This document shows, piece by piece, positions 551 to 25,219 of a stretch of DNA of 64,000 nt (its first letter is position 1; every line of letters begins with the position of its first letter). The notes under the pieces are model-generated. The model was not told the DNA's origin. It was given only the letters and a program-made list of their open reading frames with translations, and ran no database searches. The translations under genes and the position numbers were made by a program. Source of the stretch: Minisyncoccota bacterium (lineage in GTDB: Bacteria > Patescibacteriota > Minisyncoccia > Phycocordibacterales > UBA6065); contig DASZXC010000008.1 in NCBI GenBank assembly GCA_035546035.1, forward strand, positions 252,265 through 316,264. The letters are read 5' to 3'.

Positions 551-612
551 GCTAAAATACAATAATAAAACACCCCAGGGCCTGGCGGGGTGTTTTATTA
601 TTGTATTTTAGC
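551..612. repeat. Perfect palindrome with 26-bp arms (copy 1 of 3 related elements); probable bidirectional terminator
   Basis: GCTAAAATACAATAATAAAACACCCC-agggcctggc-GGGGTGTTTTATTATTGTATTTTAGC between convergent genes. Confidence 0.8.
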
Positions 613-613
613 G

Positions 614-1021
614 TTACATCTTCAGGATCTTCACGCCGTGAGGATTCCTGTAGACTCGCACGAAGACAACGGTTATATACGCAGACACTGCGATGGTGAA
701 GAATGTCGCGGCGATGGACTGGAGAGGGAGTATCGTCCAGAACGTCTCGAGAGCCGATGCGAAATACGCCGGCGTCATGGCGAACGTGTTCCTGAGGGTC
801 TTTAGCGCCGCTTCAGCCGACGCGTTCGAGAGCGCTCGGTATATATCGACTGAAAGCACGCTCAAGTTGAGGCAGAGCACGGCGGTCGAGAAGGCGAGAT
901 ACTTGCCGTATCCGGCCAGAAATACGCGCTTCATGATCCTTCCGTGGAGGTGCGCTGGCATGGGTTCTTCCGGCAGAGCTTCTATCATCGCGTCCGTCAA
1001 TTTATATTCCTGATCGTTCAT
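614..1021 (-). CDS. Putative anti-sigma factor / membrane protein, second gene of the ECF sigma operon
   Basis: Immediately downstream of ECF sigma gene on same strand; central hydrophobic helix; no recognisable catalytic motif. Confidence 0.45.
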   Translation of the reverse strand: MNDQEYKLTDAMIEALPEEPMPAHLHGRIMKRVFLAGYGKYLAFSTAVLCLNLSVLSVDIYRALSNASAEAALKTLRNTFAMTPAYFASALETFWTILPLQSIAATFFTIAVSAYITVVFVRVYRNPHGVKILKM

Positions 1022-1049
1022 GTATGTAATGTGATTTTATTCGCAGGCT

Positions 1050-1595
1050 TTATTCATAGTTTACGAGCAACGTCGCCAGCTGTTTCTTTGCCCTCGATAA
1101 TCGGGTCTTCAGCGTATTGATCGGGATAGAGAGCATGTCCGCTATCTCTTCATAGCTGAATCCGTCCTTGTAATAAAGGATTATCGGCCCCCGGTAGAGG
1201 AGGTTGAGGCGATCTATGGCGGCTGCCACGTCTTTCGTTTCGATATTGTCTTCTGTAGACACCGAGTAGTACGACGCGCTATCAGGCTTTGTTTCGTACT
1301 CTTCGTCAAGCTCGGTCGTGGCCTGGCGCTTCTTCTTGCGGAGAAAGTCGTATGCCGTATTCGTCGCGATCGTGTATATCCAGGACTTGATGTTCTTCGA
1401 AGGATCGATCGCCTTTATATGCTTGAATATCTTGACGAAGGTGTCTTGGATAAGGTCCTCGGCATCGTCTTTAGAGCCAACGAGGCGGACCAGATAGCTC
1501 CACAAAGGCTTCTCGAACGTCGAAACGATCTCCTCGAAAGCCAGGATATCTCCTTTTCGAGCCCTCTCGAGTATTTCAGGGGGTATGGTGCTCAT
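1050..1595 (-). CDS. RNA polymerase ECF-type sigma-70 family factor
   Basis: Region 2 (DLIQDTFVKIFKHI, SWIYTIATNTAYDFLRKKK) and region 4 (FSYEEIADMLSIPINTLKTRLSRAKKQL) motifs; start placed at internal ATG 1595 (MSTIPPEI) rather than the extended ORF start 1772. Confidence 0.85.
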   Translation of the reverse strand: MSTIPPEILERARKGDILAFEEIVSTFEKPLWSYLVRLVGSKDDAEDLIQDTFVKIFKHIKAIDPSKNIKSWIYTIATNTAYDFLRKKKRQATTELDEEYETKPDSASYYSVSTEDNIETKDVAAAIDRLNLLYRGPIILYYKDGFSYEEIADMLSIPINTLKTRLSRAKKQLATLLVNYE

Positions 1596-1609
1596 GTTGC
1601 CTATAAGTA

Positions 1610-1636
1610 TACGTCGCAGAATGAAGATTTGTTTCA
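1610..1636 (-). promoter_or_regulatory. ECF-type promoter (TGAAAC-N17-CGTA) upstream of ECF sigma gene; likely autoregulatory
   Basis: Minus strand reads TGAAAC aaatcttcattctgcga CGTA, about 10 nt upstream of ATG 1595; same AAC-N17-CGTA architecture at 5381 and 12242. Confidence 0.55.
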
Positions 1637-1677
1637 GAGCTGAAAGCGTTATATACAAGAGTCGTACTAGATATATT

Positions 1678-2346
1678 ATGACGTCGAGGATAAATGCAAA
1701 GGAGGCCATAGAGCTGCAAAAAGAGATGCGAAAGGACGTCAGGATCGAACCTGTCCGCCGGCCTATACGCACGATAGCTGGAGCCGACGTGTCTTTGGAA
1801 AGGTTCGGCGACGAGCTTTATGCCGGCATAATCGTGCTCTCATATCCTGACCTGAAGCCTGTAGAGCATGCGGTCGCCAAAATGAAAGTCGAGTTTCCCT
1901 ATATTCCAGGCCTACTTTCGTTTCGCGAGATTCCGGGGCTTATAAGATGTTTGGAGAAGCTTTCGGCGAAGCCTGACCTCATTATCGTAGATGGGCAGGG
2001 AATAGCGCACCCGCGAAGGCTGGGCATCGCCGCGCATCTCGGTATCGTATCCGGCGTGCCGACGATCGGTTGCGCGAAGTCTCGGCTCTATGGCGTGTTC
2101 GAAGCGCCGAAGAATGTCGGCGATGCGACGCCGGTCACAGATCCAAAGACGAGTGAGCTTATCGGCTATGCCCTGAAATCGAAAGCCCGGTCGAATCCTC
2201 TGATCATATCTCCGGGATACAAGGCGGACGTTGAAGACGCGCTTTCGATTGTCCGCGAAACGGTGCGCGGCTATAAACTGCCGGAACCTACCCGGAAGGC
2301 GCATGAGTTGGTGAATAGATTCAGAAGGGGCGAGATCCGCGAATAG
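1678..2346 (+). CDS. nfi: Endonuclease V (deoxyinosine 3-prime endonuclease)
   Basis: IAGADVS, IPGLLSFRE, DGQGIAHPRRLGIAAHLG and PTIGCAK motifs; start at internal ATG 1678 to avoid overlap with divergent sigma gene. Confidence 0.85.
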   Translation: MTSRINAKEAIELQKEMRKDVRIEPVRRPIRTIAGADVSLERFGDELYAGIIVLSYPDLKPVEHAVAKMKVEFPYIPGLLSFREIPGLIRCLEKLSAKPDLIIVDGQGIAHPRRLGIAAHLGIVSGVPTIGCAKSRLYGVFEAPKNVGDATPVTDPKTSELIGYALKSKARSNPLIISPGYKADVEDALSIVRETVRGYKLPEPTRKAHELVNRFRRGEIRE

Positions 2347-2372
2347 CGCCTGACGATGCCTCGCGTTTTCGG

Positions 2373-2445
2373 AGCCACCTCCCGGGATCGAACCGGGGAC
2401 CTCTACTTTACGAAAGTATTGCTCTACCAGCTGAGCTAAGGTGGC
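2373..2445 (-). tRNA. tRNA-Thr (anticodon CGT)
   Basis: Reverse complement gives GCCACCT-TA-GCTCAGCTGGTAGAGC...anticodon loop TTCGTAA...T-arm CCCGG-TTCGATC-CCGGG...AGGTGGC; no CCA encoded. Confidence 0.8.
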
Positions 2446-2461
2446 GGAATGTATGACCGCC

Positions 2462-2527
2462 TGGAGCCAACGTCCGGGATCGAACCGGAGACCTCGTCAT
2501 TACCAATGACGTGCTCTACCGACTGAG
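2462..2527 (-). tRNA. tRNA-Thr (anticodon GGT)
   Basis: Reverse complement GCCAACG-TA-GCTCAGTCGGTAGAGC-ACGTCATTGGTAATGACG...T-arm CTCCGG-TTCGATC-CCGGA(G)...CGTTGGC-T-CCA (CCA encoded). Confidence 0.85.
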
Positions 2528-2625
2528 CTACGTTGGCGGCAATTCGAAACAAAGCCGAAAAGACAAAGCCTACTATAGTTTATTTCGGCCCTTTTTGCAA
2601 AATAAGGCCCGGATCCGAGGAGCGA

Positions 2626-2654
2626 TTGACAGACCGGCGTATTCATATATTATC
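2626..2654 (+). promoter_or_regulatory. Sigma70-like promoter (TTGACA-N16-TATTAT) driving a short non-coding unit upstream of prfB
   Basis: TTGACA at 2626-2631, TATTAT at 2648-2653; no plausible CDS downstream before a strong terminator. Confidence 0.35.
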
Positions 2655-2659
2655 CATAC

Positions 2660-2814
2660 ACGCCGACCGGGGAGAACCGTGTGCTCGCATGAAATCCCGG
2701 TAGAGGCGGAAGGCCGGTCATTCGGAAGACGTTTGTGCCCGACACCCAGAGGGCATTTTTCCGAAAAAACCCCGGACTTGGGCCGGCGCGGATCGCGCCG
2801 GCCCTCTTTATTTC
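2660..2814 (+). ncRNA. Candidate small structured RNA (unclassified), bounded by promoter and intrinsic terminator
   Basis: About 150 nt GC-rich segment with complementary blocks (CCGGGG/CCCCGG; TTCGGAA/TTCCGAA; TGCCC/GGGCA) and ending in terminator hairpin; the only ORF here overlaps the tRNA genes and is rejected. Confidence 0.3.
2780..2814 (+). terminator. Intrinsic terminator (11-bp GC stem plus U-run) 37 nt upstream of prfB
   Basis: GGGCCGGCGCG-gat-CGCGCCGGCCC followed by TCTTTATTT. Confidence 0.75.
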
Positions 2815-2850
2815 ACCGAATCCCGCAAGGGCCCTGATGCTATACTTTTA

Positions 2851-3723
2851 ATGATGAACGACAAGGCAAAGCGCATCGCCGAAATAGAGTTTCTCATGAC
2901 CGAGGCGTCCTTTTGGGACAACAAAGACCGCGCGCAGGCGATGCTGCGGGAGCTGAACGATCTCAAGGCCGCCATCGCCGAAGCCGACAAATACGAAAGG
3001 GGAAATGCCATCGTTACCATATTCTCCGGTGCCGGAGGCGACGATGCGGAGGATTTCTCGCGCATGCTCCTTGAGATGTATATGAAGTATGCCGACCGAA
3101 AGGGTTGGTCAGTCGCGTTCCTCCACGACAACCAGAACGATCGCGGCGGATACAGGAACGTGACGCTCGAGATCGGAGGCAAGGGCGCGTATGGGACGCT
3201 TAAGAACGAATCGGGCGTGCACCGCTTGGTCCGCGTATCGCCGTTCAATGCCAAAAAGCTCCGCCACACGTCGTTCTCTCTGGTCGAAGTGATCCCGAAA
3301 TTCGAAAAGACGGAAAGACTCGATATCCCTCCCGAAGAGATAAAAATAGAGTTCGCCAAATCGTCCGGTCCGGGGGGCCAGAACGTGAACAAGCGCGAAA
3401 CCGCGGTGCGCTTGGTCCATATCCCGACGAAGATCGCCGTTCACGTATCGAGCGAGCGCTCCCAGGCCGATAATCGCAGCCGTGCGATGGATATATTGAA
3501 GGCGAAGATATACAAAATGCGCGAAGACGAGCGCATCGCAAAGGAGAAAGGCATGCAGATATCGAAGACGACCGATATCGAATGGGGCAATCAGATACGA
3601 TCGTATGTTCTGCACCCGTATAAGATGGTCAAAGACCACCGCACCGACGCGGAGACCGCCAATGTAGACGCGATTCTGGGCGGAGACATCGATATGTTCA
3701 TAGAAGCCGAAAAGAACCTGTAG
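2851..3723 (+). CDS. prfB: Peptide chain release factor 2 (N-terminally short form, no programmed frameshift)
   Basis: SPF tripeptide motif (RVSPFNAK) specific to RF2, GGQ motif (GPGGQNVNK), single uninterrupted frame; extended -10 (TGcTATACT) 4 nt upstream of ATG suggests leaderless transcript. Confidence 0.85.
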   Translation: MMNDKAKRIAEIEFLMTEASFWDNKDRAQAMLRELNDLKAAIAEADKYERGNAIVTIFSGAGGDDAEDFSRMLLEMYMKYADRKGWSVAFLHDNQNDRGGYRNVTLEIGGKGAYGTLKNESGVHRLVRVSPFNAKKLRHTSFSLVEVIPKFEKTERLDIPPEEIKIEFAKSSGPGGQNVNKRETAVRLVHIPTKIAVHVSSERSQADNRSRAMDILKAKIYKMREDERIAKEKGMQISKTTDIEWGNQIRSYVLHPYKMVKDHRTDAETANVDAILGGDIDMFIEAEKNL

Positions 3724-3762
3724 TTGGGCCGTTGCGTAGTATGGTAGAATAGATGCCTACGC

Positions 3763-4443
3763 ATGATCAGATTCGATAAAGTAACCAAGGTATATTCGGA
3801 CGACTCGGTGGCCCTCGAAGACGTATCGCTCCATATCGAGCCTAAAGAATTCGTATCCATCGTCGGACATTCGGGCGCCGGTAAGACGACCCTCATAAAG
3901 ATGATCCTTGCCGAGGAAAAGCCGACTAAGGGCCGTGTCCTGTTCGAATCGACGGACGTGAACAAGATACATCGGAAGAAGATGCCGGAATACCGCCGCC
4001 GCATCGGAACGGTGTTCCAGGACTTCAGGCTCATTCCGAACAAGACGGTGTTCGAGAACATAGCGTTCGCTATGGAGGCGGCGGGGAGGACCGACGAAGA
4101 GATCGCTTCCGACGTGCCTCACGTTCTTGACCTCGTGGATCTGGGCCGAAAGATATGGAACTTCCCGAACGAGCTTTCCGGCGGCGAAAAGCAGCGCGTC
4201 GCCATCGCTCGCGCTATCGTCAATCAGCCCGATCTCATCATCGCGGACGAGCCGACGGGAAACCTCGACCCGGTGAACACGTTCGAGATCGTGCAGATAT
4301 TGAAGAAGATCAACGACCTCGGCACCACGGTCATCCTTACGACCCATAATAAGGGCGTCATAGAGAACATCGGCCGCCGCGTCGTCACTATGGAAAAAGG
4401 TCGCGTCGTGCGCGACGACACGGAAGGCAAATACGCTATATAA
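3763..4443 (+). CDS. ftsE: Cell division ATP-binding protein FtsE
   Basis: Walker A GHSGAGKTT, ABC signature LSGGEKQRVAIARA, Walker B LIIADEPTGNLD; followed by ftsX. Confidence 0.9.
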   Translation: MIRFDKVTKVYSDDSVALEDVSLHIEPKEFVSIVGHSGAGKTTLIKMILAEEKPTKGRVLFESTDVNKIHRKKMPEYRRRIGTVFQDFRLIPNKTVFENIAFAMEAAGRTDEEIASDVPHVLDLVDLGRKIWNFPNELSGGEKQRVAIARAIVNQPDLIIADEPTGNLDPVNTFEIVQILKKINDLGTTVILTTHNKGVIENIGRRVVTMEKGRVVRDDTEGKYAI

Positions 4444-4460
4444 TCGAATCACCCAACAGC

Positions 4461-5378
4461 ATGTTCTGGATCAATACCAAACGAATAGTGAAATCCGGCT
4501 TCGTGTCATTCTGGAGGAACGGCTTCGTCTCGCTCTCGTCGGTCCTCATCATGACGCTCACGCTCTTCGCGCTCGGCGGCATCATGTTCGCGGGCGCTAT
4601 CCTTAACTCGTCCCTTAATCAGATCAAGGCAAAGGTAGACGTGAATGTCTACTTCGTCCCGACCGCCGATGAGGACAGTATCCTCGCCCTTCAGAAGAAG
4701 CTCGAAGCGTTGCCCGAAGTGGCGAGCGTCGAATACGTTTCCCGCGAAGACGCCCTGGAGAATTTCAAGACGCTCCACGCCAATGACCAGATCACGCTCC
4801 AGGCGCTCGACGAGCTCGGCGACAATCCTTTGGGCGCCATCTTGAATATCAAGGCCAAGGAGCCGTCGCAGTACGAGGGCATCGCCAAGTTCCTCGATTC
4901 CGAAGGCGGCGAGGGAGGGGCATTCATAGACAAGATCAACTATTACCAGAACAAGACGGCGATAGACACGCTGACGAGGATGATAAGCGGCGGAACCAAG
5001 ATCGCGCTCGCGATCACGCTCGCGCTCGTGATCATCTCTATCCTCATCGTCTTCAATACCATACGCCTGGCCATCTATATCGCGAGGGAGGAGATCGCGG
5101 TCATGAGGCTCGTGGGCGCGTCTAACCGATTCGTACGCGGTCCGTTCATCATTTCAGGTATTATGTACGGCCTCGTGTCAGCCGTCATCACGCTCCTGTT
5201 CTTCTATCCGGCGACGTTCTGGATATCGAACGTGACCGCGACGTTTTTCAGCGGCTTCAACCTGTTCTCGTATTATATAAACAACATGCCGATCGTTATG
5301 GGCGTCATCCTCGGCGCAGGCGTCATCCTCGGCGCCATATCAAGCTATCTCGCGGTGCGAAAGTATCTTCGCCTCTAG
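4461..5378 (+). CDS. ftsX: Cell division permease-like protein FtsX
   Basis: N-terminal TM, large periplasmic loop, C-terminal 3-TM FtsX-like permease fold, adjacent to ftsE. Confidence 0.85.
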   Translation: MFWINTKRIVKSGFVSFWRNGFVSLSSVLIMTLTLFALGGIMFAGAILNSSLNQIKAKVDVNVYFVPTADEDSILALQKKLEALPEVASVEYVSREDALENFKTLHANDQITLQALDELGDNPLGAILNIKAKEPSQYEGIAKFLDSEGGEGGAFIDKINYYQNKTAIDTLTRMISGGTKIALAITLALVIISILIVFNTIRLAIYIAREEIAVMRLVGASNRFVRGPFIISGIMYGLVSAVITLLFFYPATFWISNVTATFFSGFNLFSYYINNMPIVMGVILGAGVILGAISSYLAVRKYLRL

Positions 5379-5380
5379 CC

Positions 5381-5407
5381 GGGAACGATTTCGTAAGGTT
5401 TTTCGTA
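5381..5407 (+). promoter_or_regulatory. ECF-type promoter GGGAAC-N17-CGTA upstream of secreted protein gene
   Basis: GGGAAC (5381-5386), 17-nt spacer, CGTA (5404-5407); overlapped by three direct repeats TTCGTA(A/G)G at 5390, 5402 and 5412. Confidence 0.5.
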
Positions 5408-5466
5408 GTACTTCGTAAGGACGCACTATAAAGAAGGACGCGTCCTTTACAAGCTAAGAAAACCTT

Positions 5467-6201
5467 ATGAAAAAACCAAAGGCATTTGCGTACTCCGCGG
5501 TTTCGATCGCCTTGGCGGCGGCCCTGCCGGTCTCCGCGCAGGTAACGGGCGGATTAAATACGGGAGTGGGCGCAGATATCAATATCGGGTCAGGGACGAA
5601 TGCGGCCGTTAACGTCGGCGGGGTCGCATCGAGCTCGTCAAATACGAGCGGCAATGCTTCGTCTGGCGTGACCGTAGGCGGCACGGTCACCGCCGGCGCT
5701 TCGGCGAACGCGCCTTCGGCCCACATCGAGACGTTCGCCGTTTCGCGAAGCGATGCGAAGGCGACTACGACCGAATACATAGCTCCTGCGAACGTCACTT
5801 CGCAGGCTGATTTCGAGACCTATTCTAAGGCTCTCGTCATGGCCGACGAGAATGTGGCCAAGATATCGACGGGCGACGACTATGTCTCTGTCTGGTACCA
5901 TGAGCCTGCCAAGGTGCTCGGCGTCATCCCCGTGACCGCTACGGTCAAGGCGACTGTCGACGCGGCAGGAGATGTGAGCGTCGACTATCCGTGGTGGTAC
6001 GGCCTCTTCGTCAAAGACGACACGGCCGTGGACTTCAAGAACGACATAGATACCACTGCCGGCGTCATCGCCCGAGGCGAAGCTTCTGCGACGCTCTCTT
6101 CATCCGCGAAGGCGCGGCTCGTGAATGCGGTGCGAACCACTATGAAGGCTCACTATGACGCAAACGTCAGCGCGTCGTCATCAGAGACCGCCGCTTATTA
6201 G
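5467..6201 (+). CDS. Secreted hypothetical protein (signal peptide, Gly/Ala/Ser-rich N-terminal region)
   Basis: Signal peptide MKKPKAFAYSAVSIALAAALPVSAQ; no recognisable domain. Confidence 0.6.
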   Translation: MKKPKAFAYSAVSIALAAALPVSAQVTGGLNTGVGADINIGSGTNAAVNVGGVASSSSNTSGNASSGVTVGGTVTAGASANAPSAHIETFAVSRSDAKATTTEYIAPANVTSQADFETYSKALVMADENVAKISTGDDYVSVWYHEPAKVLGVIPVTATVKATVDAAGDVSVDYPWWYGLFVKDDTAVDFKNDIDTTAGVIARGEASATLSSSAKARLVNAVRTTMKAHYDANVSASSSETAAY

Positions 6202-6272
6202 GAAGCACGCAAAATGCATACAAAGAACGCCCCAGGCCCTAGGGCGTTCTTTGTATGCATTTTGCGTGCTTC
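6202..6272. repeat. Perfect palindrome with 31-bp arms (copy 2 of 3); probable terminator
   Basis: GAAGCACGCAAAATGCATACAAAGAACGCCC-caggcccta-GGGCGTTCTTTGTATGCATTTTGCGTGCTTC directly after stop codon 6201. Confidence 0.8.
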
Positions 6273-6298
6273 TCGGTAAGAGCGTACAATGACCGCGC

Positions 6299-6889
6299 AT
6301 GGAACGTTCCGACATTGATCTTATGAGCGCTTCAAAGGCGGGCGATACTCGCGCTTTCGACGAATTGGTCGGTCGCTATGCCGATCGCATCTATGCATTC
6401 GTCTTGCGCCTCTCGGGCGACGCGAACACCGCCGCCGATGCCGCGCAGGAGACGTTCATCAAGGTCTGGAAGAATCGGAAGAAATATCAAGCGGGCAGGA
6501 ACGTCTCGCCGTGGATATTCGCTATCGCCCGGAACGCGACGTTCGATCTCCTTCGCAAGAAGAAAGACCGCGCATTCTCTTCGATCCAATCGGACGATGC
6601 CGGCGACGTAGGGGAAAGCATCCCTGACGAATCGATAGATATTCCGGAAGGATTCGACCGCAGGAAATTCGCCGAGCTCCTCGAAGAGACCATCGAAACC
6701 CTGACGCCGAATCAGAGGGCTGTCGTCATGCTCCATGACGTGGAGGGCATGACGTTCGACGAGGCGGGGGAAGCCTTGGGAAAGCCCCTTAATACCGTTA
6801 AAAGCCATTACAGGAGAGCTATAGCGGCTCTAAGGATTAAACTCGGATCAAAGCTCGCCGGCAGGCCGGGACCGCACCAAAATCGCTGA
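6299..6889 (+). CDS. RNA polymerase ECF-type sigma-70 family factor (second copy)
   Basis: Region 2 (AQETFIKVWKNRKKY, SPWIFAIARNATFDLLRKKK) and region 4 (MTFDEAGEALGKPLNTVKSHYRRAIAALR). Confidence 0.85.
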   Translation: MERSDIDLMSASKAGDTRAFDELVGRYADRIYAFVLRLSGDANTAADAAQETFIKVWKNRKKYQAGRNVSPWIFAIARNATFDLLRKKKDRAFSSIQSDDAGDVGESIPDESIDIPEGFDRRKFAELLEETIETLTPNQRAVVMLHDVEGMTFDEAGEALGKPLNTVKSHYRRAIAALRIKLGSKLAGRPGPHQNR

Positions 6890-6907
6890 AATTAACGTAT
6901 ACATGTC

Positions 6908-7306
6908 ATGGCACTACAGAGCCGTCCATTCTCAGGAATAGCGAATATCGAAGCTCCGGGATCTCTCCGCGAGTCCGTTCGCGCGCGTGTAGCCGTCATA
7001 GAGCGCCGCGCATGGATATTCCGATTCTCCGGCCTTGCCGGCCTTGCGCTTGTCTCTGTTTCAGGCTTCGTCGCATCGTGCGCATATGTCTATCAGGCAG
7101 TAGCCGCATCGGGCTTTATCCAGTACGTCTCTCTTATCTTCTCTGACGGAACCGACGTCCTCGCTTTCTCAAAAGAGCTCTCTCTTTCCATGCTCGAATC
7201 TCTTCCCGCATTCGGCATCGCGCTCGTCCTTGCCGCCGGCCTTGTGGCCGTAGGCTCGGTCATGACTTCGGTCAGATTTGCCCGCCACTTTAACAGCGTT
7301 GCTTAA
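6908..7306 (+). CDS. Putative anti-sigma factor (membrane protein)
   Basis: Directly follows ECF sigma gene; two hydrophobic segments; no catalytic motifs. Confidence 0.45.
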   Translation: MALQSRPFSGIANIEAPGSLRESVRARVAVIERRAWIFRFSGLAGLALVSVSGFVASCAYVYQAVAASGFIQYVSLIFSDGTDVLAFSKELSLSMLESLPAFGIALVLAAGLVAVGSVMTSVRFARHFNSVA

Positions 7307-7311
7307 ATTTT

Positions 7312-7845
7312 ATGAACGAACCGATCAATAAGAGATTCGACGATATATGGGACAAGGTCTTTTCAGGTCCTACCAAAGGCCGGCGCATCGCGCTCGTGCT
7401 TGTCGGAGTCATAGCGACGCTCCTCGTATTCCAGGCGGGCGTGTCTGTCGGCTACCACAAAGCTTCGTTCTCGTACCGATCGAGCGATAGATTTTTTCGG
7501 ATGGTCCAAGGCCCTGAAACGGGCGTCGCGTCGCTAACGACGGGCTTTCCCGTAGACGAATTCTCTGCGAGCCACGGCACAGCGGGCCGAATCGTATCGG
7601 TGTCGCTTCCTACCTTCGTCGTCGCGAGCCCTGATAACCGCGAGCAGACCGTCACTATCGACGGAAACACGGTCGTCCGCATGTTCAGGGCGACCGCATC
7701 GTCGTCCGATATACGGCCTGAACAATTCACCGTCGTATTGGGCGAGCCGAACCAGGCCGGAACCATTCAGGCCCGCTTCGTGCGTATCATGCCCGCGACC
7801 ATGAGCGTCCAGGGCGTTCAGACCATACAGTCTTTTCCTCGCTAA
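7312..7845 (+). CDS. Membrane-anchored hypothetical protein in sigma/efflux operon
   Basis: N-terminal TM helix (IALVLVGVIATLLVF), 5-nt gap to upstream gene, 2-nt gap to macA-like gene. Confidence 0.4.
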   Translation: MNEPINKRFDDIWDKVFSGPTKGRRIALVLVGVIATLLVFQAGVSVGYHKASFSYRSSDRFFRMVQGPETGVASLTTGFPVDEFSASHGTAGRIVSVSLPTFVVASPDNREQTVTIDGNTVVRMFRATASSSDIRPEQFTVVLGEPNQAGTIQARFVRIMPATMSVQGVQTIQSFPR

Positions 7846-7847
7846 TC

Positions 7848-9539
7848 ATGAAAAAAATAAAAACCTGGATCATAGCCCATAAGATAATGGCCGGAGTGGC
7901 GGCTGTCGCCGTCGTAGCCGTCAGCTATGGCGTATACCGCCATGCATCGCCCGCGTCCGCGGCGACGAAATACGTCCTCGCGAACGTGGAGAAGGGCACG
8001 CTCATCTCGTCTGTTTCTGGATCGGGCCAGGTCGCTGCCCAGAACCAGGTGACGGTGACGAGCAATGCGTCAGGCGATATCACGTCGGTCCTGGTTCAGG
8101 ACGGCGATCAGGTCGTCGCAGGCCAGACGCTTGCGACCATAGAAGCGGCGGACGCGTCTCGCGCCGTGGACAATGCCGAATTGGCTCTCGAAAATGCCCG
8201 CGTCGCATATGACAAGGCTGTAAAGGAGTCCGAGAACCAGTCCGCATCGTCGACCGTCTCTGACGTCGCCAAAGCATATCAGGCGGGATACAACGCTATC
8301 GTCGCGACATCCATCGATCTTCCGGCTATATTCTCCGGTTTGAATGATCTCTATTACACGCCGTCGCATTCTCCGTATTTCTCCGACATAAAGCTCGCGA
8401 ACGAAGTAGACGCGGCGGCGGTCACATATAAAGAGCAGGCGGGTTCCGCATTTGACGAGGCGCGCAATGAATACCAGGCGAACTTTCTCCGCTACAAGAA
8501 CATCTCCGAGACGTCCTCCGAAGAAGAGATCGTCGCGCTCCTCGACGAGACGGACGTCATCCTGAAAAAGCTCCTCGGCTCGCTTTCCGGCACGTATAGC
8601 ACGCTCGATTATGTCGAAGGCAAGCTCTCGGCCGTACCTTCGGTGCTCACGAGCGACAAGTCCGCGGTATCGTCATATGTCAATAAGGTCAATAGCGACT
8701 CTTCGAGCATCACCAACGCGCTCTCGGCCATAGACAACGCAAAGACCGCAGGGACGTCAGCGAGCCTCTCCATGAAATCGGCCGAGCTTTCGGTCCGCCA
8801 GGCCGAATCGTCTCTTTCCGACGCACAGATAGCGCTGGCCGACCATCGCGTCAAGGCGCCGTTCTCCGGGCTCGTGGCAAAAGTGATCGCCAAGAACGGC
8901 GACAAGGCAAATAACGGCTCCCAAATCGCGACTCTCGTCACCAAGGAACAGATGGTGAACATATCGCTCAATGAGATCGACGCGGCCAAGATCGCGAAAG
9001 GGGACAAAGCGACGCTCACGTTCGATGCCATCGAAGACCTGACGCTCGCTGGGCACGTCTCGAACGTGGACCTCGTCGGCAGCGTGTCGCAGGGCGTCGT
9101 GTCGTACAGCGTCCAGATCGCATTCGATTCCGTCGACGACCGCGTGAAGCCGGGCATGACCGTGAATGCGAGCATCGTTACCGACGCGAAGCAGGACGTG
9201 CTCTTGGTCCCGTCAGGAGCGGTCAAGACCGTAGGCGGAGTCTCATACGTCCAGATACTTCCGACGACATATGACGCGGCCGAGGGGGCGCAGGGAATCA
9301 TTCCTGACGAGGCTCCGACGAATATCCCCGTAACCATCGGCAGTTCGAATGATTCGGAGGTCGAGATCGCGTCAGGCCTCGCCGAAGGCGAACAGATCGT
9401 CGCACGCACCGTCACGTCGTCCGGCGCGACCCGATCGACGACCCCGACCATATTGAACAGCATCGGCGGATCGCGCGCGGGCGGCAATGCCGGCGCGGCC
9501 GCGGGAGGGACGTTTCGAGCGGTCCAATTCAGCCGATAG
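7848..9539 (+). CDS. Efflux transporter periplasmic adaptor subunit (HlyD/MacA family)
   Basis: N-terminal TM anchor, long coiled-coil, C-terminal beta-barrel motifs (VKAPFSGLVAKV, KPGMTVNASIVT, LLVPSGAVK); followed by MacB-like ATPase and permease. Confidence 0.8.
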   Translation: MKKIKTWIIAHKIMAGVAAVAVVAVSYGVYRHASPASAATKYVLANVEKGTLISSVSGSGQVAAQNQVTVTSNASGDITSVLVQDGDQVVAGQTLATIEAADASRAVDNAELALENARVAYDKAVKESENQSASSTVSDVAKAYQAGYNAIVATSIDLPAIFSGLNDLYYTPSHSPYFSDIKLANEVDAAAVTYKEQAGSAFDEARNEYQANFLRYKNISETSSEEEIVALLDETDVILKKLLGSLSGTYSTLDYVEGKLSAVPSVLTSDKSAVSSYVNKVNSDSSSITNALSAIDNAKTAGTSASLSMKSAELSVRQAESSLSDAQIALADHRVKAPFSGLVAKVIAKNGDKANNGSQIATLVTKEQMVNISLNEIDAAKIAKGDKATLTFDAIEDLTLAGHVSNVDLVGSVSQGVVSYSVQIAFDSVDDRVKPGMTVNASIVTDAKQDVLLVPSGAVKTVGGVSYVQILPTTYDAAEGAQGIIPDEAPTNIPVTIGSSNDSEVEIASGLAEGEQIVARTVTSSGATRSTTPTILNSIGGSRAGGNAGAAAGGTFRAVQFSR

Positions 9540-9562
9540 GGCTTCATCCGGCATCTAACACC

Positions 9563-10270
9563 ATGATCGAGATAAAGAACGTCACCAAAACGTATTCTGA
9601 AGGCACCGACGTCGCGTTTCAGGCCCTGAAAGGTGTGAATTTTACGATCAAGGACGGCGAATTCGTGGCCATCATGGGCCCGTCCGGTTCCGGCAAGTCC
9701 ACGCTCATGCATATCATGGGCGCCTTGGATACTCCGTCTTCAGGGCATTATCTCCTCGATGGAAAGGACGTATCGACGCTTTCCGATGACGAGCTCGCTG
9801 ATATCCGAAAGGGCAAGATCGGCTTCGTATTCCAGGCTTTCAATCTGTTGCCGCGTACGACGGTCCTGCGAAACGTAATGCTGCCCTTGGTCTATGCGGG
9901 GGAAGAGCCGGGCGCGCGCGAAGCGCGCGCCAAGACAGCTCTCATATCTGCAGGGCTCAATGAAAGCCATTTCAGCCACCGATCGAACGAATTGTCGGGG
10001 GGCCAGATCCAGCGCGTGGCCATCGCCCGCGCGCTCGTGAACGATCCGACGCTCATATTGGCCGACGAGCCGACGGGAAACCTCGATTCCCGCACGGGCG
10101 AAGTCGTTTTGGGCACGTTCCAGAAATTGAACGAAGAAGAGGGCCGCACCATCGTCCTCATCACTCACGAGCATGACGTGGCCGAACATGCCAAAAGGAT
10201 CATTTTCATCAGGGACGGCAAGATAGAGAGCGATACGTCGGACCATAAGCGTCGTAAGGCAAATATATGA
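9563..10270 (+). CDS. ABC transporter ATP-binding protein (MacB/LolD-like)
   Basis: Walker A GPSGSGKST, signature LSGGQIQRVAIARA, Walker B ILADEPTGNLD, H-loop ITHE. Confidence 0.9.
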   Translation: MIEIKNVTKTYSEGTDVAFQALKGVNFTIKDGEFVAIMGPSGSGKSTLMHIMGALDTPSSGHYLLDGKDVSTLSDDELADIRKGKIGFVFQAFNLLPRTTVLRNVMLPLVYAGEEPGAREARAKTALISAGLNESHFSHRSNELSGGQIQRVAIARALVNDPTLILADEPTGNLDSRTGEVVLGTFQKLNEEEGRTIVLITHEHDVAEHAKRIIFIRDGKIESDTSDHKRRKANI

Positions 10271-11490: not shown

Positions 11491-12019
11491 TCTCGGCGCT
11501 TTCGTGACGGTATTAAAAGGCATTAAGAACACTACATACGTGAAAAACTCGCATAAAATGATTATCGGCGCGGTCGTTATAGCAGGAGCGTTCTTCTATG
11601 GAGGATACGCATATGCGGCGCATGCGGCTCCTAAAGGAATGAACATGCGCTTCTCCATGGGAGCGAACGGCTCGATGGCGCGTTCGGGAGGCGCGGCTTC
11701 GTTTAATACCGCCGGCGGAGCGGGTACGGCCTTCCGCGCGGGCGGAATGGGTGCCGGCGGAGGATTCGTCACCGGCACGGTCCTTTCCAAAGACGACCAG
11801 TCGGTTACGGTAAAGCTTCAGGACGGCGGATCGAAGATCGTATTCGTCGGCGGTTCGACTCAGGTCATGAAAAGCGTGGCGGGGTCGATCGCAGATATTT
11901 CCGTCGGCGCGAACGTAATGATAACGGGTTCCCAGAACCAAGACGGCAGCGTCACTGCCCGATCGGTTGATATCCGGCCGATGCGCATGGCGTCGACGTC
12001 CATGCCTGTGAAGCAGTAG
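11483..12019 (+). CDS. DUF5666-like secreted glycine-rich protein (typical companion of MacAB in Gram-positive/CPR genomes)
   Basis: Signal/TM then Gly-rich stretch then VTGTVLSKDDQSVTVKLQDGGSKIVFVGGSTQVMK...ITGSQNQDGSVTARSVDIRP; true start may be internal ATG 11558. Confidence 0.6.
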   Translation: MNNLGAFVTVLKGIKNTTYVKNSHKMIIGAVVIAGAFFYGGYAYAAHAAPKGMNMRFSMGANGSMARSGGAASFNTAGGAGTAFRAGGMGAGGGFVTGTVLSKDDQSVTVKLQDGGSKIVFVGGSTQVMKSVAGSIADISVGANVMITGSQNQDGSVTARSVDIRPMRMASTSMPVKQ

Positions 12020-12200
12020 ACAGTAGTACGATACAGGCCTGAGGATTTGTACAGGACACTTTTCGGCATCTCCTACGTATTACATGCAGAAGGCGTTCTT
12101 TCAACAAATAATCTCAAAAGATCAAAAATAGTGCTGCAAGGGAATCACGCTCGCGGAAAGACCTATTCTTTCCAATGCCGATACTTTACACGGCATGAGC

Positions 12201-12236
12201 GATGATAAAAGCCTCCTCTCGGAGGCTTTTATCATT
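12201..12236. terminator. Intrinsic terminator hairpin
   Basis: GATGATAAAAGCCTCC-tctc-GGAGGCTTTTATCATT, A/T tracts on both sides. Confidence 0.7.
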
Positions 12237-12241
12237 CGCGT

Positions 12242-12265
12242 AACCTTTACGCAAAGGCCTTCGTA
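12242..12265 (+). promoter_or_regulatory. ECF-type promoter AAC-N17-CGTA upstream of lmo0937-family gene
   Basis: cgtAAC (12242-12244), 17-nt spacer, CGTA (12262-12265), about 36 nt upstream of ATG 12301. Confidence 0.45.
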
Positions 12266-12300
12266 TTAAAAACGAGCTTATAAGCGATAATCCATAACGT

Positions 12301-12453
12301 ATGCTCGTAACCATAGCAACGCTCCTCGTCATCCTCTGGCTTCTCGGTCTCATAACGTCATATACCGTCGGAGGATTCATTCACGTCCTTCTCGTCGTCG
12401 CCGTCATAATGTTCCTCATCAGGATCATACAAGGCAGGAATCCGGTGTCGTAA
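12301..12453 (+). CDS. lmo0937-family small membrane protein (50 aa), below the 60-aa ORF-track cutoff
   Basis: Translation MLVTIATLLVILWLLGLITSYTVGGFIHVLLVVAVIMFLIRIIQGRNPVS matches the conserved two-helix lmo0937 family pattern. Confidence 0.7.
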   Translation: MLVTIATLLVILWLLGLITSYTVGGFIHVLLVVAVIMFLIRIIQGRNPVS

Positions 12454-12476
12454 GCGTCGCTCCGCGAAGCGCAGGG

Positions 12477-13337
12477 CTACGGCTTCCTGATCGCTTTCAT
12501 GAAGGCGTCGAGCGCCATCGCCGCGCCGGAGGAATTGCGATGGCCGCCTCCGCCGAGGATGGCCGCGATATCGAGAGCCGACGGCGTATGCGAATCAAGG
12601 CTTCTAAAGCTGATCTTCACCCGGTGCGCCTCGATGGTGAACAAGCCCACGGCGCGGTCGCGTTCTTTCGACAAGATATTGCCGCTCTCCGATTTGTAGG
12701 CCGTAATGTTATAGAAAGGCACCGTATGCTGGCCTATCAGAAGGTCCACCGGCTCGGTGCCTTTTATCGCGTGGGCGATCATAAAATCCCCGTATTCGCT
12801 GATGATACGGCCTTTTTCTATGGCAGCGTCGAGCGAGCCGTTCAAAAGCGCGGCTACTTCTTCGGGTCTATTCGAAAGGGGATAGAGATAGCTCGCTACA
12901 TATTTCGTCTTGTCGCCGTATTTCCAGTTCCAGAGGTCGAAGTCTTCGACGTACGTGATGAGTTCCGGGACTTTCTCGCCGGGGAAGAGATATGACCAGG
13001 ACAACGATGATCCGCATTTCGAATTATCGAATACATAGGTGAAGTTCTCATTCTGCGCGGCGAGGGCCATATATTCGTCGCGAACACTCGCATGGTGATC
13101 GATCGACGTGACCTTGCGACCGGCGGCTAAAAATTCTTTTGCGCCGATGACGCAGTCCACGGTCAGGACGCGGTCGCGTGGCGTCGTCTGGGCGATGAGC
13201 TCAGCGATCTCTTCAGCCGTCGCGCCATGGCTCATGGCGAACAAAAGCGCGCCGGGATATTTTTTCGAAACGACCGCCGCCGATGTCGTGCCGTCGCTGC
13301 AGTCTTTGTGATATATCGCTATAGTTTTCTCTGTCAT
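12477..13337 (-). CDS. DHH-family phosphoesterase (NrnA-like oligoribonuclease / pAp phosphatase)
   Basis: DHH motif (TSIDHHAS) and DHHA1 motif GGGGH (ILGGGGHRNSSGAA). Confidence 0.8.
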   Translation of the reverse strand: MTEKTIAIYHKDCSDGTTSAAVVSKKYPGALLFAMSHGATAEEIAELIAQTTPRDRVLTVDCVIGAKEFLAAGRKVTSIDHHASVRDEYMALAAQNENFTYVFDNSKCGSSLSWSYLFPGEKVPELITYVEDFDLWNWKYGDKTKYVASYLYPLSNRPEEVAALLNGSLDAAIEKGRIISEYGDFMIAHAIKGTEPVDLLIGQHTVPFYNITAYKSESGNILSKERDRAVGLFTIEAHRVKISFRSLDSHTPSALDIAAILGGGGHRNSSGAAMALDAFMKAIRKP

Positions 13338-13339
13338 TT

Positions 13340-13969
13340 TTATTCGGTTTTTGCTCGTTTAGCCTGTCTTTCTTGGATAAGGGCATTTCTCATGGCCAGG
13401 CCGAACATAAGCCCGTTCATGACGACCATGAGTACCGGAAGCGTGGCGATATAGAGGTCCCATATCGGCACCGCCGCCAGGTTCAGGACCGAGCCGACGA
13501 AGAACAGCGTCCAGCCTTCGAGATCAAGCTCTTCGCGGGTCATGGGATTGCTGTAGACCCTCCACATGACGGGGATATAGCCGATAAAGCCGATGATAAG
13601 GGTGAGAGTAAGCGCCACGAACGGCGTGTCGAAATGGAACCATCGGATCGAAGATATGGCGACGACGACGAGTATGAGCCTTTCGAGCGTCCCCCAGCCC
13701 TGGCGGCCGTATTTGAAAGAAAGGGCGGTGATGACGCTTGAACCCAGGAAATACGCCGCCGGAACCCATATGGTTGCGCGGGCGCCGAGAGCATAGTAGC
13801 TCATGAGTATAAGGAGGCTCGAAAGCGTCCAGACGAGCCACGAGGCGCGCTCAGGCGGCGCTTCGCCCTTTATTATCTTTATGACGTATGGTGCATAGCC
13901 TGCCAGAGAGCAGGCGCCGCCGATAACGCCGAGATACGGGAGTATGGTCATAAGTATTAGTATACGCAT
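13340..13969 (-). CDS. Polytopic membrane protein, hypothetical
   Basis: Six predicted hydrophobic helices; 3-nt gap to downstream NrnA gene. Confidence 0.5.
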   Translation of the reverse strand: MRILILMTILPYLGVIGGACSLAGYAPYVIKIIKGEAPPERASWLVWTLSSLLILMSYYALGARATIWVPAAYFLGSSVITALSFKYGRQGWGTLERLILVVVAISSIRWFHFDTPFVALTLTLIIGFIGYIPVMWRVYSNPMTREELDLEGWTLFFVGSVLNLAAVPIWDLYIATLPVLMVVMNGLMFGLAMRNALIQERQAKRAKTE

Positions 13970-14018
13970 ATTGGCGGGCTTTGCACCGATATGCGATGAT
14001 AGAGCGTATTACAGGCAT

Positions 14019-14501
14019 ATGAAAACATACGGCACCAAGTTCGTTATCAGCCTCGTAGCTTTTGTAGCACTTATAGGCGCTATCTTCGCCTATGTATCGC
14101 GATCAGGAGGCAAAGCGGGTGCCTTGACCGATACCGAGGCTTCGTCTACGCCCGTCGTCGCTGAAAACCCTTCTGACGCAGCGCAAGATATACCCCGAAC
14201 CGGCAGATACAAGGACGGCACATATAGCGCCCGCGGCACCTATCAGTCGCCAGGCGGCCTCGAATCGGTTGATGTGACGCTCGTGCTCAAGAACGACGTC
14301 ATCACCGACGCTTCGGTCGTATCGAATGCGACTATTCCGCAGTCGATCATGTTCCAGGGCAAATTCATCTCTGGCTTCAAGGCTCTCGTTGTTGGCAAGA
14401 ACATAGATACGGTAAAGCTCGACAAGGTATCGGGGTCGTCTCTCACTCCGAAGGGTTTCAACAGCGCGGTCACCGAGATCAAGGCTGAAGCGGCGGCGTA
14501 A
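14019..14501 (+). CDS. FMN-binding domain protein, membrane-anchored (NqrC/RnfG/PplA-like)
   Basis: N-terminal TM anchor; FMN_bind-like core with flavinylation-type motif DKVSGSSLT; immediately upstream of ApbE; start placed at ATG 14019 rather than the extended ORF start 13944. Confidence 0.7.
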   Translation: MKTYGTKFVISLVAFVALIGAIFAYVSRSGGKAGALTDTEASSTPVVAENPSDAAQDIPRTGRYKDGTYSARGTYQSPGGLESVDVTLVLKNDVITDASVVSNATIPQSIMFQGKFISGFKALVVGKNIDTVKLDKVSGSSLTPKGFNSAVTEIKAEAAA

Positions 14502-14504
14502 ATC

Positions 14505-15386
14505 GTGCGGCTCATGGCATCGAGATTTACATTCGAAGCCATAGGTACCTCGTGGGCCATATATATTCCGGAAGATCTCTCTCCAGAAAGGGAAAAGGCG
14601 CTCCTCGACGCTATACGTACGCGCATCTCTGATTTTGATAAGGCGTATTCGCGGTTCAGAGACGATTCATTGGTCGCTGAGATGTCACGCAAAGCGGGCG
14701 AGTATCGTCTGCCTGACGATGCTTTGCCCATGCTTTCGCTCTATAGAGAACTCTATGACATTTCAGGCGGGCTTGTGACGCCTCTGGTCGGCCAGACGCT
14801 TTCGGATGCGGGATATGACGCGGCGTATACTCTGCGTCCGAGAGCGGATATCGCCCGTGCTAAGCCGTGGGAGGATGTCATCGAATATGAACACCCGATG
14901 ATCAGGATCAAGGAGCCCGTGCTTTTGGATTTCGGCGCTTTAGGCAAAGGATATCTCGTCGATATTGTCGCCGAAGTCATCCGCGGTTTCGGTATCCAGA
15001 ATTATTCTGTTGACGCGGGCGGCGATATCGCGTATCGGGGCGCTGCGCCGCTTCGCGTCGGATTGGAAAATCCGACGGACACGAAACAGGTCATCGGTGT
15101 CGGAGAGCTAAAGGGAGGGAAATGCATATGCGGATCGGCAGGTAATAGGCGCGCATGGGACAGGTTCCATCACATCATCAATCCGCAGACGGCCGAATCG
15201 CCGAAACACATTCTCGCCCTCTGGATCGTTGCCGATACGACGCTTCTTGCCGATGCGCTTTCGACGGCACTCTTCTTTGTGGGGCCGGAGAAGCTGGCGA
15301 AATACGATTTCGAGTACGCTGTCGTATTCGCTGACCGTTCAGCTGTTAGATCACATAATTTTCCGGGAGATTTCTTCGAAGCCTAG
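14505..15386 (+). CDS. apbE: FAD:protein FMN transferase (ApbE family)
   Basis: ApbE family length and motifs (FEAIGTSWAIYIP, DFGALGKGYLVD, GGDIAYRG, CGSAGNRR), 4-nt gap after FMN-binding gene. Confidence 0.85.
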   Translation: MRLMASRFTFEAIGTSWAIYIPEDLSPEREKALLDAIRTRISDFDKAYSRFRDDSLVAEMSRKAGEYRLPDDALPMLSLYRELYDISGGLVTPLVGQTLSDAGYDAAYTLRPRADIARAKPWEDVIEYEHPMIRIKEPVLLDFGALGKGYLVDIVAEVIRGFGIQNYSVDAGGDIAYRGAAPLRVGLENPTDTKQVIGVGELKGGKCICGSAGNRRAWDRFHHIINPQTAESPKHILALWIVADTTLLADALSTALFFVGPEKLAKYDFEYAVVFADRSAVRSHNFPGDFFEA

Positions 15387-15420
15387 AAAGGCCCGGCGCG
15401 GTATACTTAAGTAAAAATAT

Positions 15421-15834
15421 ATGAACAAACTCTACGCATTGGCTCCGACGATATTGCGCATAGGCATGGCGTTGGTATTTCTCTGGTTCGGATCGAGCCA
15501 GTTCATCGATACCGTCGCGTGGACGGCATACGTGCCCGAATGGGTCGTCTCGATGTCGCCTGTGAGCGTCGAGACCCTGGTCCATATCAACGGCGCGATC
15601 GAGATCGTATTCGGAACGGCGCTTCTTTTGGGGTTCTTTACTCGCATCGCCGGATTCATTTTGGCGCTTCATATGGTCCATATCGCTACGCTCGTCGGAT
15701 ACAATGCGACCGGCGTGCGCGATTTCGGCTTGGCTATCGCGGCTATCGCGGTCTGGCTCAACGGCAAAGATGCCTGGACGCTCGATGCGTATCTTGCCAA
15801 AGACCGGTCTGCCCAGATGCAGAGTGGAGTATAA
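15421..15834 (+). CDS. DoxX-family membrane protein
   Basis: Four TM helices with DoxX-like N-terminus (ILRIGMALVFLWFGSSQF). Confidence 0.7.
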   Translation: MNKLYALAPTILRIGMALVFLWFGSSQFIDTVAWTAYVPEWVVSMSPVSVETLVHINGAIEIVFGTALLLGFFTRIAGFILALHMVHIATLVGYNATGVRDFGLAIAAIAVWLNGKDAWTLDAYLAKDRSAQMQSGV

Positions 15835-15862
15835 TAGACAGGTTACAAGTTAATCCATTTTT

Positions 15863-16288
15863 ATGGCAGCAGTACCTATTAATTACGCGGCGCTTTTAGT
15901 CGCGGCCGTTATATCGGTGGCGCTCGGCTTCCTCTGGTACGGTCCTCTTTTCGGCAAGAAGTGGATGACTCTCACCGGGATCCCTATGCCTGCGGAAAAG
16001 CCTCCGTTCTCCGTCATGGTGAGGCCGATGGTCATGTCCGTCGTCGGGTCGCTCTTTATGGCATTTGCGCTCATCCATAACATCACGTTCGGGGCGTCGT
16101 ATCTGAACATGTCGGGAGCGTGCGTCGGCTTGTTCGCCGCGTTCTGGAACTGGCTCGGTTTCGTCGTTCCTCCGGCGCTCAATCATGTCGGATGGGAAGG
16201 AAAGCCGTGGACGCTGTTTTGGATCAATACAGGGTACTTTCTCGTCTATATGGCGATCATCGGCGCGATGCTCGCTGTCTGGCAGTAA
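15863..16288 (+). CDS. DUF1761-like membrane protein
   Basis: Four TM helices, N-terminal NYAALLVAAVISVALGFLWYGPLFGKKW pattern. Confidence 0.55.
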   Translation: MAAVPINYAALLVAAVISVALGFLWYGPLFGKKWMTLTGIPMPAEKPPFSVMVRPMVMSVVGSLFMAFALIHNITFGASYLNMSGACVGLFAAFWNWLGFVVPPALNHVGWEGKPWTLFWINTGYFLVYMAIIGAMLAVWQ

Positions 16289-16291
16289 AAC

Positions 16292-16359
16292 ACTGGAAAC
16301 AAAGTAATATAAAACACCCCGCCAGGCCCTGGGGTGTTTTATATTACTTTGTTTCCAGT
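16292..16359. repeat. Perfect palindrome with 29-bp arms (copy 3 of 3); bidirectional terminator between convergent genes
   Basis: ACTGGAAACAAAGTAATATAAAACACCCC-gccaggccct-GGGGTGTTTTATATTACTTTGTTTCCAGT; stop codon of minus-strand gene lies inside right arm. Confidence 0.8.
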
Positions 16360-22188: not shown

Positions 22189-22189
22189 G

Positions 22190-25150: not shown

Positions 25151-25219
25151 GCGATCAATTAATGCTAGGTATTACGAAAGCATTGTGCGTATGACGGCGT
25201 AAAGGAAAGATAAAGAAAG

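Follow-up and report, generated by a model that had tools for sequence, protein, structure and literature searches.

How does a bacterial genome come to carry, at the ends of its genes, hairpins whose arms pair perfectly over some 30 base pairs? The question is raised by a 64,000-nucleotide (nt) stretch of contig DASZXC010000008.1, hereafter the window, from the Minisyncoccota bacterium assembly GCA_035546035.1. The source is a metagenome-assembled genome of the Candidate Phyla Radiation (CPR, or Patescibacteria) with around 56% GC, and the window contains three perfect palindromes of about 70 bases, here named E1, E2 and E3, with perfect arms of 31, 31 and 29 base pairs (bp), respectively. 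Our answer, drawn from sequence comparison and held with moderate confidence, is that these are lineage-specific, over-extended bidirectional intrinsic terminators, the stems of which would have been perfected and extended by replication template switching as far as the stop codons of neighbouring genes. The parts of the three palindromes are as follows, protein lengths being given in amino acids (aa).

546-576: E1 left arm, 31 bp, including the TAA stop (547-549) of a 60-aa gene
577-586: E1 loop, AGGGCCTGGC, the reverse complement of the E3 loop
587-617: E1 right arm, 31 bp, including the stop of a 135-aa gene (614-616, minus strand)
6202-6232: E2 left arm, 31 bp, beginning right after the TAG stop (6199-6201) of a 244-aa gene
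6233-6241: E2 loop, CAGGCCCTA
6242-6272: E2 right arm, 31 bp, containing TTTTGCGT at 6260-6267
16292-16320: E3 left arm, 29 bp; the outermost 16 nt (16292-16307) are copied, in reverse complement, from where a 182-aa gene ends (3')
16321-16330: E3 loop, GCCAGGCCCT, the exact reverse complement of the E1 loop
16331-16359: E3 right arm, 29 bp; on the minus strand, 16344-16359 encodes the end of the 182-aa gene, L-E-T-K-stop

All three palindromes were found where the original prediction had placed them. Its arm lengths hold for E2 and E3, whereas the 26 bp given for E1 falls short of the 31 bp of perfect pairing observed, the outermost five base pairs of which (GTAAC/GTTAC) hold the stop codons of both convergent genes. 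E2 may alternatively be read as 35-nt arms around a single base, C6237, with one mismatch (35+1+35). Only ten hairpins in the whole window score 10 or more and, E1-E3 apart, none has arms longer than 16 bp. The full hairpins are predicted to fold at -47 to -64 kcal/mol, corresponding to z-scores of -9.6 to -14 against shuffled sequences. Their A/T tracts, previously described as flanking the elements, in fact sit inside the arms. Copy counts of the palindromes and of their core, here and below, cover the 64-kb window, in which E1-E3 all fall within 16 kb.

Perfect hairpins of ordinary size, with arms of 10-16 bp and in most cases resembling terminators, lie at 298-334, 2780-2804, 12202-12235, 36419-36450, 37549-37580, 43899-43924 and 63060-63084. 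One of them follows tRNA-Asp and another has the sequence ATGATAAAAGCCTCC-tctc-GGAGGCTTTTATCAT. The example at 37549-37580 is a loopless 32-bp palindrome, and that at 36419-36450 is composed purely of A and T.

Are the palindromes real? A short-read assembler folding back at hairpins could conceivably have manufactured the perfect right arms, a concern raised by the metagenomic origin of the assembly and by the difficulty that palindromes pose for de Bruijn assemblers. Independent Logan contigs (k=31) from run SRR12170516, derived from the same sample, were compared with the window, and they break at every element, a practical illustration of how such palindromes interrupt k-mer assembly. One contig (L001) runs from the DUF1761 gene beside E3 through the E3 left arm and the loop GCCAGGCCCT, ending where the 34-mer shared with E1 ends, while a second (L020) enters from the opposite flank of E3 through the same arm sequence and has the loop reversed (AGGGCCTGGC). 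E3 is thus reached from both sides with opposite loop orientations, as a true palindrome predicts. A third contig (L015) ends 30 nt into the E2 left arm, where the 31-nt inverted repeat makes the graph branch. The contig ends accordingly coincide with 31-nt inverted repeats or with the shared 34-mer, that is, with the branch points that real repeats are expected to produce in a k=31 graph.

Further points against misassembly are that the gene order on both flanks of E1 and E2 is that of related genomes, and that an assembler error would not give one core at different loci. The relatives used for comparison throughout are L006 and L010 (GCA_035545915.1 and Logan contigs; 63-71% protein identity) and L013 (an ENA scaffold; 53% protein identity), all with the same gene order as the window. 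Because the Logan contigs support the palindromes, an assembly artefact is very unlikely for E2 and E3, the elements that this check covers, and as an explanation of the palindromes in general we give it almost no credence.

What, then, are they placed to do? The genes and signals that adjoin the elements are these.

367-549, plus strand: 60-aa membrane-protein gene, ending in E1, with orthologues in L010 and L013
614-1021, minus strand: 135-aa gene, the last of an extracytoplasmic function (ECF) sigma factor operon, ending in E1, with its stop at the same position in L010
1050-1772 as called, minus strand: ECF sigma open reading frame (ORF) of the operon on the E1 side
5467-6201, plus strand: 244-aa gene (HVU06693.1), upstream of E2
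6285-6290, plus strand: TACAAT, a -10-like box conserved in L010 and L013, separated by 12 nt from the end of E2 and by 8 nt from the ATG of the ECF sigma gene that follows
6299-6889, plus strand: second ECF sigma factor gene, downstream of E2
15863-16288, plus strand: DUF1761 gene, its stop 3 nt before E3
16344-16892, minus strand: 182-aa gene (HVU06708.1, with 181 aa in its annotation); the E3 right arm contains the last four codons and the stop

As had been stated, the elements lie 0-3 nt from stop codons, and two of them, E1 and E3, are situated between convergent genes; E2 separates co-directional ones. E1 fills the entire spacer between the stops of the convergent 60-aa and 135-aa genes. 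The central module of each element consists of an A-tract, a GC-rich stem of 6-8 bp, a loop of 9-10 nt containing GGCC and a T-tract, and reads as such on both strands: in E1 and E3 the core is AAAACACCCC-loop-GGGGTGTTTTAT and in E2 it is AAAGAACGCCC-loop-GGGCGTTCTTTG. The GC stem-loops alone are calculated to fold at -10.3 and -13.4 kcal/mol, and the modules of 34-39 nt at -16 to -23.5 kcal/mol. Both the position and the sequence are those of intrinsic terminators, with stop codons that lie within the arms or at a distance of 0-3 nt and a GC hairpin with flanking A- and T-tracts. To judge from its form, its position and the orthologous sites described below, the central module probably terminates transcripts arriving from either strand.

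At all three orthologous sites the relatives have ordinary terminator hairpins of 10-15 bp.

E1 site, L010: hairpin AAAAAACCCTCCG-ta-CGGAGGGTTTTTT
E1 site, L013: stem of 12-13 bp
E2 site, L010: hairpin AAGCCTCTA-tcgcgg-TAGAGGCTTTTTGCG, the 3' arm also being written TAGAGGCTTTTT
E2 site, L013: hairpin similar to that of L010
E3 site, L006: hairpin AAGACCGCAC-gcga-GTGCGGTCTT

The suggestion that the palindromes act as terminators thus gains support from three sides, namely their position at stop codons, their arrangement of A-tract, GC stem and T-tract, and the ordinary terminators of the relatives. The exceptional arm length is another matter. Since no perfect hairpin with arms longer than 15 bp is present in the roughly 180 kb of loci fetched (partly redundant, and including around 85 kb of syntenic DNA from relatives), the over-long palindromes are, by this comparison, lineage-specific.

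How were the arms lengthened? Stop codons occupy the same positions in the window and in the relatives. The intergenic spacer containing E1 measures 64 nt, a figure that may be compared to 67 nt in L010, and the window and L013 agree in having 83 nt between stop codon and TACAAT box at the E2 site. Spacer lengths being almost unchanged, there has been no addition of some 70 bp; rather, the spacers have been remodelled in place. At the E2 site, moreover, the relatives display quasi-palindromic, imperfect pairing outside their main stems, and the sequence TTTTGCGT in the E2 right arm matches the T-tract of their terminators, TTTTTGCGT in L010 and TTTTTTGCGC in L013. This retained T-tract is a weaker sign that in E2, too, the right arm may be the native one.

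The stronger sign comes from E3. The 182-aa protein ends ...VSDGKLLETK, and the codons for its last four residues and the stop lie inside the E3 right arm. Among 120 homologues retrieved, most of the single-domain ones end in G.L[VLIA]E[VT]..[KQ] followed by the stop, examples being GGKLVEVK, NGKLAETTK and DGQLVEINK. Because the C-terminus fits this family consensus, the E3 right arm is native coding DNA, and the left arm (ACTGGAAACAAAGTAA...) must therefore have been copied, as the reverse complement, from the neighbouring gene's 3' end. Imperfect complementarity extending beyond the perfect arms of E3 (43 nt, 86%) was set aside as due to chance: both sides are conserved coding sequence and the value is barely above that for L006.

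A process with these properties has precedent. A model of quasi-palindrome correction by template switching was reportedly put forward by Ripley in 1982. Template switching perfects quasi-palindromes, homogenises and expands inverted repeats, and inverts spacers (PMC5941160; PMC8794818; PMC6357072), and the abstracts of PMC8604942 and PMC13100816 likewise describe template-switch perfection or expansion of inverted repeats and spacer inversion. In the present case a nascent strand would fold back at the terminator hairpin and copy its own arm, so that the quasi-palindrome becomes perfect. The outer 16-19 bp, specific to each locus, would then be local inverted duplications at the DNA level, unneeded for termination and left untranscribed whenever termination occurs. 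On the overwritten side, the stop codon would set the limit to extension, since copying past it would harm a gene, and palindromes formed in this way would fill the whole gap between genes. Spacer inversion, finally, could explain the opposite loop orientations of E1 and E3.

The observations expected of such a process are an ancestral arm accompanied by its exact reverse complement, as in E3, and shorter repeats in relatives with no net insertion, and both are found. The overwritten side of each palindrome ends 0-3 nt from a stop codon. Comparison demonstrates copying of an arm from local DNA for E3, and we infer the same for E1 and E2.

Several observations sit less comfortably with over-extended terminators built by local template switching. 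The process does not explain why only three of the ten or so terminator-like hairpins in the window should have grown. That the arms are so alike in length (29, 31 and 31 bp) could indicate a mechanism with a fixed tract length rather than growth limited by selection. The loops of 9-10 nt exceed those typical of intrinsic terminators, and the U-tract is paired within the full hairpin. Most importantly for what follows, local template switching cannot account for a 34-nt core that is identical in E1 and E3, asymmetric loop included, or for the centre that E2 has in common with them.

Where did the shared core come from? Its two identical occurrences are located as follows.

565-598, minus strand: E1 core module, 34 nt that match E3 16309-16342 exactly, shaped like a bidirectional terminator hairpin of standard size (-16 to -17 kcal/mol)
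16309-16342, plus strand: E3 core module, 34 nt identical to the reverse complement of E1 565-598

The identical sequence, found in opposite orientations in the two elements, is ATAAAACACCCC-GCCAGGCCCT-GGGGTGTTTTAT. Direct reading shows E1 and E3 to be perfect to the centre but for a 3-nt insertion, GCC, on one side. The original prediction ascribed the motif ACACCCC/GGGGTGT to all three elements; it is indeed common to E1 and E3, but E2 carries ACGCCC/GGGCGT and has in common with the others only the centre CCAGGCCCT, CCCCAGG-C-CCT(A/G)GGG. When the three are re-centred, a single near-palindromic centre, CCCCAGG-C-CCT(G/A)GGGG, emerges. Measured against shuffled sequences, the 26-nt core occurs twice in the window where 0.00 occurrences are expected, and the outer 16-19 bp of the arms have no significant similarity between elements. 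The differences between E2 and the other two appear mirrored on both arms, with A:T to G:C changes and symmetric small indels; this would fit continued homogenisation of the arms and is only suggestive, the segments being short and AT-rich. The core must in any case have been copied from one locus to another, over distances of 5.6 and 15.7 kb; ectopic template switching, gene conversion and a tiny mobile hairpin are candidate routes.

The last of these leads to the view that a small mobile palindromic element, either a hairpin cassette of 34-41 nt or the entire unit of around 70 bp, has spread to gene ends in the manner of repetitive extragenic palindromic (REP) sequences, REPINs or miniature inverted-repeat transposable elements (MITEs), terminating transcription incidentally. 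We consider this unlikely, while recognising what it would explain: an identical 34-nt core with an asymmetric loop at two unrelated loci in opposite orientation and a diverged version at a third, the absence of the elements from the orthologous sites of three relatives, and arms of similar length (29-31 bp). Against it, the outer arms are unrelated between copies, that of E3 being native coding sequence. Target-site duplications are lacking, direct reading of the sequences around E1-E3 having revealed no flanking direct repeats, and the intergenic lengths are unchanged relative to the relatives.

Nor does the distribution of the core suggest mobility. The remaining 47 kb of the window hold no further copy. 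Exact scans with a 20-mer of the core returned two matches from GTDB genomes and two from JGI metagenomes, all in GC-rich DNA without a surrounding palindrome and attributable to chance; IMG/VR yielded no match to either the E1/E3 core or the E2 core, and a phage BLAST search found none. Among the approximately 70 ORFs of the window there is no transposase, REP-associated tyrosine transposase (RAYT, a Y1 HUH transposase), integrase or reverse transcriptase. The earlier proposal of a dispersed REP/MITE-like family, for which a wider search with the core had been suggested, is consequently unsupported: the outer arms are unrelated, target-site duplications, net insertion and further window copies are all wanting, one E3 arm is native coding DNA, and the window has neither transposase nor RAYT.

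Could E1 and E3 bound a mobile segment of 15.7 kb as its terminal repeats, or mark the two ends of an inverted region? Both ideas were rejected, because gene order and orientation across both elements match those of L010 and L013. Integron attC sites were dismissed because the palindromes are perfect, the flanking convergent genes are of housekeeping type and in the order seen in the relatives, and no integrase is encoded in the window.

A further account does without any dedicated enzyme. The hairpin of around 34 nt, comprising A-tract, CACCCC, GGCC-centred loop, GGGGTG and T-tract, would be a minimal, self-propagating terminator cassette, moved between gene ends by ectopic template switching at stalled forks and, on arrival, seeding runaway palindrome growth through the whole intergenic spacer up to the stop codons. 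We regard this as rather improbable. Were it true, it would represent a previously undescribed means by which non-coding hairpins spread, and by which 3' ends are remodelled in the reduced genomes of CPR bacteria.

Could the conserved centre instead be a site of recognition? Two of the forms that this might take concern DNA: a dimeric regulator connected with the ECF sigma operons could bind the centre CCCCAGG-C-CCTGGGG (CCCCAGGCCCTGGGG), or a DNA methyltransferase could bind there (CCWGG, GGCC), in which case it could also stall forks and so trigger template switching. The third concerns RNA, the double-stranded stems of 29-31 bp serving as substrates with which RNase III sets mRNA 3' ends; in principle RNase III can act on perfect stems longer than 22 bp. 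Such a site would account for a centre conserved in all three elements whose arms differ. It would also give meaning to the contact of both ECF sigma genes in the window with an element, E1 ending the operon of one and E2 standing 12 nt ahead of the other's -10 box, and to the location of E3, where L006 has a third sigma gene. In Escherichia coli, template switching in quasi-palindromes is documented to become more frequent where proteins form complexes with DNA at Dcm sites (PMC6357072).

Against recognition by a protein or a processing enzyme stand the small number of cases, three in all, and the post hoc nature of the sigma association. The window encodes no C5-cytosine methyltransferase, its two methyltransferases belonging to the N6-adenine class, and CCWGG and GGCC are neither avoided in the window nor confined to the loops. 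No Rfam family matches the elements: at gathering thresholds only tRNAs were reported, and an E-value search added a sub-threshold match to a generic hairpin, mir-934, at 29 bits compared with a cut-off of 80. Recognition would, besides, leave the perfect, locus-specific outer arms unexplained. All in all we think it a distinctly improbable explanation, and over-extended terminators shaped by template switching remain our preferred one.

Some features of the sigma genes merit description in their own right. Both ECF sigma genes of the window (1050-1772 and 6299-6889) adjoin a palindrome, an association that was noticed post hoc and may be coincidence. The TACAAT box lies 6-11 nt upstream of the ECF sigma ATG in all three genomes compared (window 6285-6301; L010 10794-10813; L013 10825-10839), a spacing that suggests a leaderless or very short-leader mRNA from a promoter packed against the upstream terminator. 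On the E1 side, an endonuclease V gene (1585-2346, plus strand) overlaps the 5' end of the longest ECF sigma ORF call (1050-1772, minus strand). The true start of that sigma gene is probably further downstream than 1772, since its orthologues are of 181 aa. The third sigma gene of L006 (10488-11192, 234 aa) is positioned between the DUF1761 and 182-aa genes, an interval that corresponds to 16289-16343 in the window, exactly where E3 is found. It has no orthologue in the window, the best match, at 35% identity, being the sigma gene beside E1. The more distant relatives P0010 and P0146, compared for signs of loss or gain of this sigma gene, have no synteny at the E3 site.

Other differences between the genomes concern gene content. 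Genes for a GH8 glycosidase, a 484-aa protein and a GT2 cellulose-synthase-like protein, which lie between the 286-aa and 209-aa genes in all three relatives (L006 3257-7528; L010 from 19257; L013 from 19379), are missing from the window at 13337-13340. The pattern suggests that about 4.3 kb were lost in this lineage, and no palindrome marks the junction. L010 has at 6027-8951 an unannotated 974-aa gene between ftsE and ftsX, also present in Logan counterparts, that is found in neither the window nor L013.

Elsewhere in the window, a low-GC island at 31654-36423 has 37-45% GC, compared with about 56% in the remainder. It encodes two D12-class N6-adenine DNA methyltransferases (34250-35314 and 35314-36423, the latter with a helix-turn-helix domain), an unannotated 496-aa ORF (32774-34264) and an ATPase of ABC/AAA_21 type (31654-32832), and is probably a restriction-modification or defence island. 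The region 20989-28581 contains large ORFs of 399, 986, 654 and 414 aa without a Pfam or NCBIfam match, the L006 orthologues of which are also unannotated. An RNase J homologue at 54461-56440 is matched by family models only from residue 109 onwards and has, therefore, an N-terminal extension of around 108 aa.

If the palindromes did arise as we propose, they would provide a clear natural case in which template switching has built perfect palindromes of around 70 bp at functional sites, with growth ending at coding boundaries and with one arm demonstrably copied from the 3' end of a gene. Long palindromes are unstable in model bacteria, and the present examples bear on the tolerance of CPR organisms for them as well as on the origin of long RNA and DNA hairpins. 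The unexplained shared core leaves room for a terminator hairpin that hops.

Comparison with known systems places the elements among bidirectional Rho-independent terminators in several respects, since they come directly after stop codons, combine a GC stem with A- and T-tracts and have canonical examples at their orthologous sites. They differ in a stem of 29-31 bp rather than the usual 5-15, in a loop of 9-10 nt rather than 3-8, in a U-tract that is fully paired in the complete hairpin and in the homologous core at three loci. The repeats involved in DNA uptake offer a partial parallel, inverted pairs of the DNA uptake sequence (DUS) or uptake signal sequence (USS) acting as terminators in Neisseria and Pasteurellaceae (PMC1852404) and thereby placing a short conserved sequence repeatedly in terminator hairpins. 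Uptake sequences, however, make up the stem itself and are spread over the genome at about one per kb, whereas here it is the loop and the top of the stem that are conserved, in only three elements in 64 kb.

Like E1-E3, REP and REPIN sequences are palindromes outside coding regions, located at the 3' ends of genes and in many cases flanked by convergent ones, and roles in termination and mRNA stability have been proposed for REPs. Yet REPs keep their arms and vary the loop or spacer, the opposite of a conserved centre with unique arms; they are also imperfect, present in tens to hundreds of copies and mobilised by RAYTs, compared with three perfect copies in 64 kb and no RAYT in the window. 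Terminator MITEs such as the Correia elements of Neisseria are likewise small, non-coding, equipped with inverted-repeat ends, located near gene ends and able to terminate. Their terminal inverted repeats are shared, however, and they generate target-site duplications and lengthen the spacer, none of which holds for E1-E3.

The way in which the arms are constructed resembles quasi-palindrome correction and inverted-repeat expansion. Perfect arms are present where the relatives have short or imperfect repeats, E3 combines a native arm with its reverse complement, there is no net insertion, and spacer inversion is a known by-product (PMC5941160; PMC8794818; PMC6357072; and, in its abstract, PMC13100816). 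Reported template-switch events usually involve a few bases, unlike the 17-19 bp or so added per arm at three loci here, and they leave the shared core unexplained. The palindromes look like terminators with stems that lengthened by backward copying of adjacent DNA, a neat instance of a mutational process already described rather than a novel class of mobile element.

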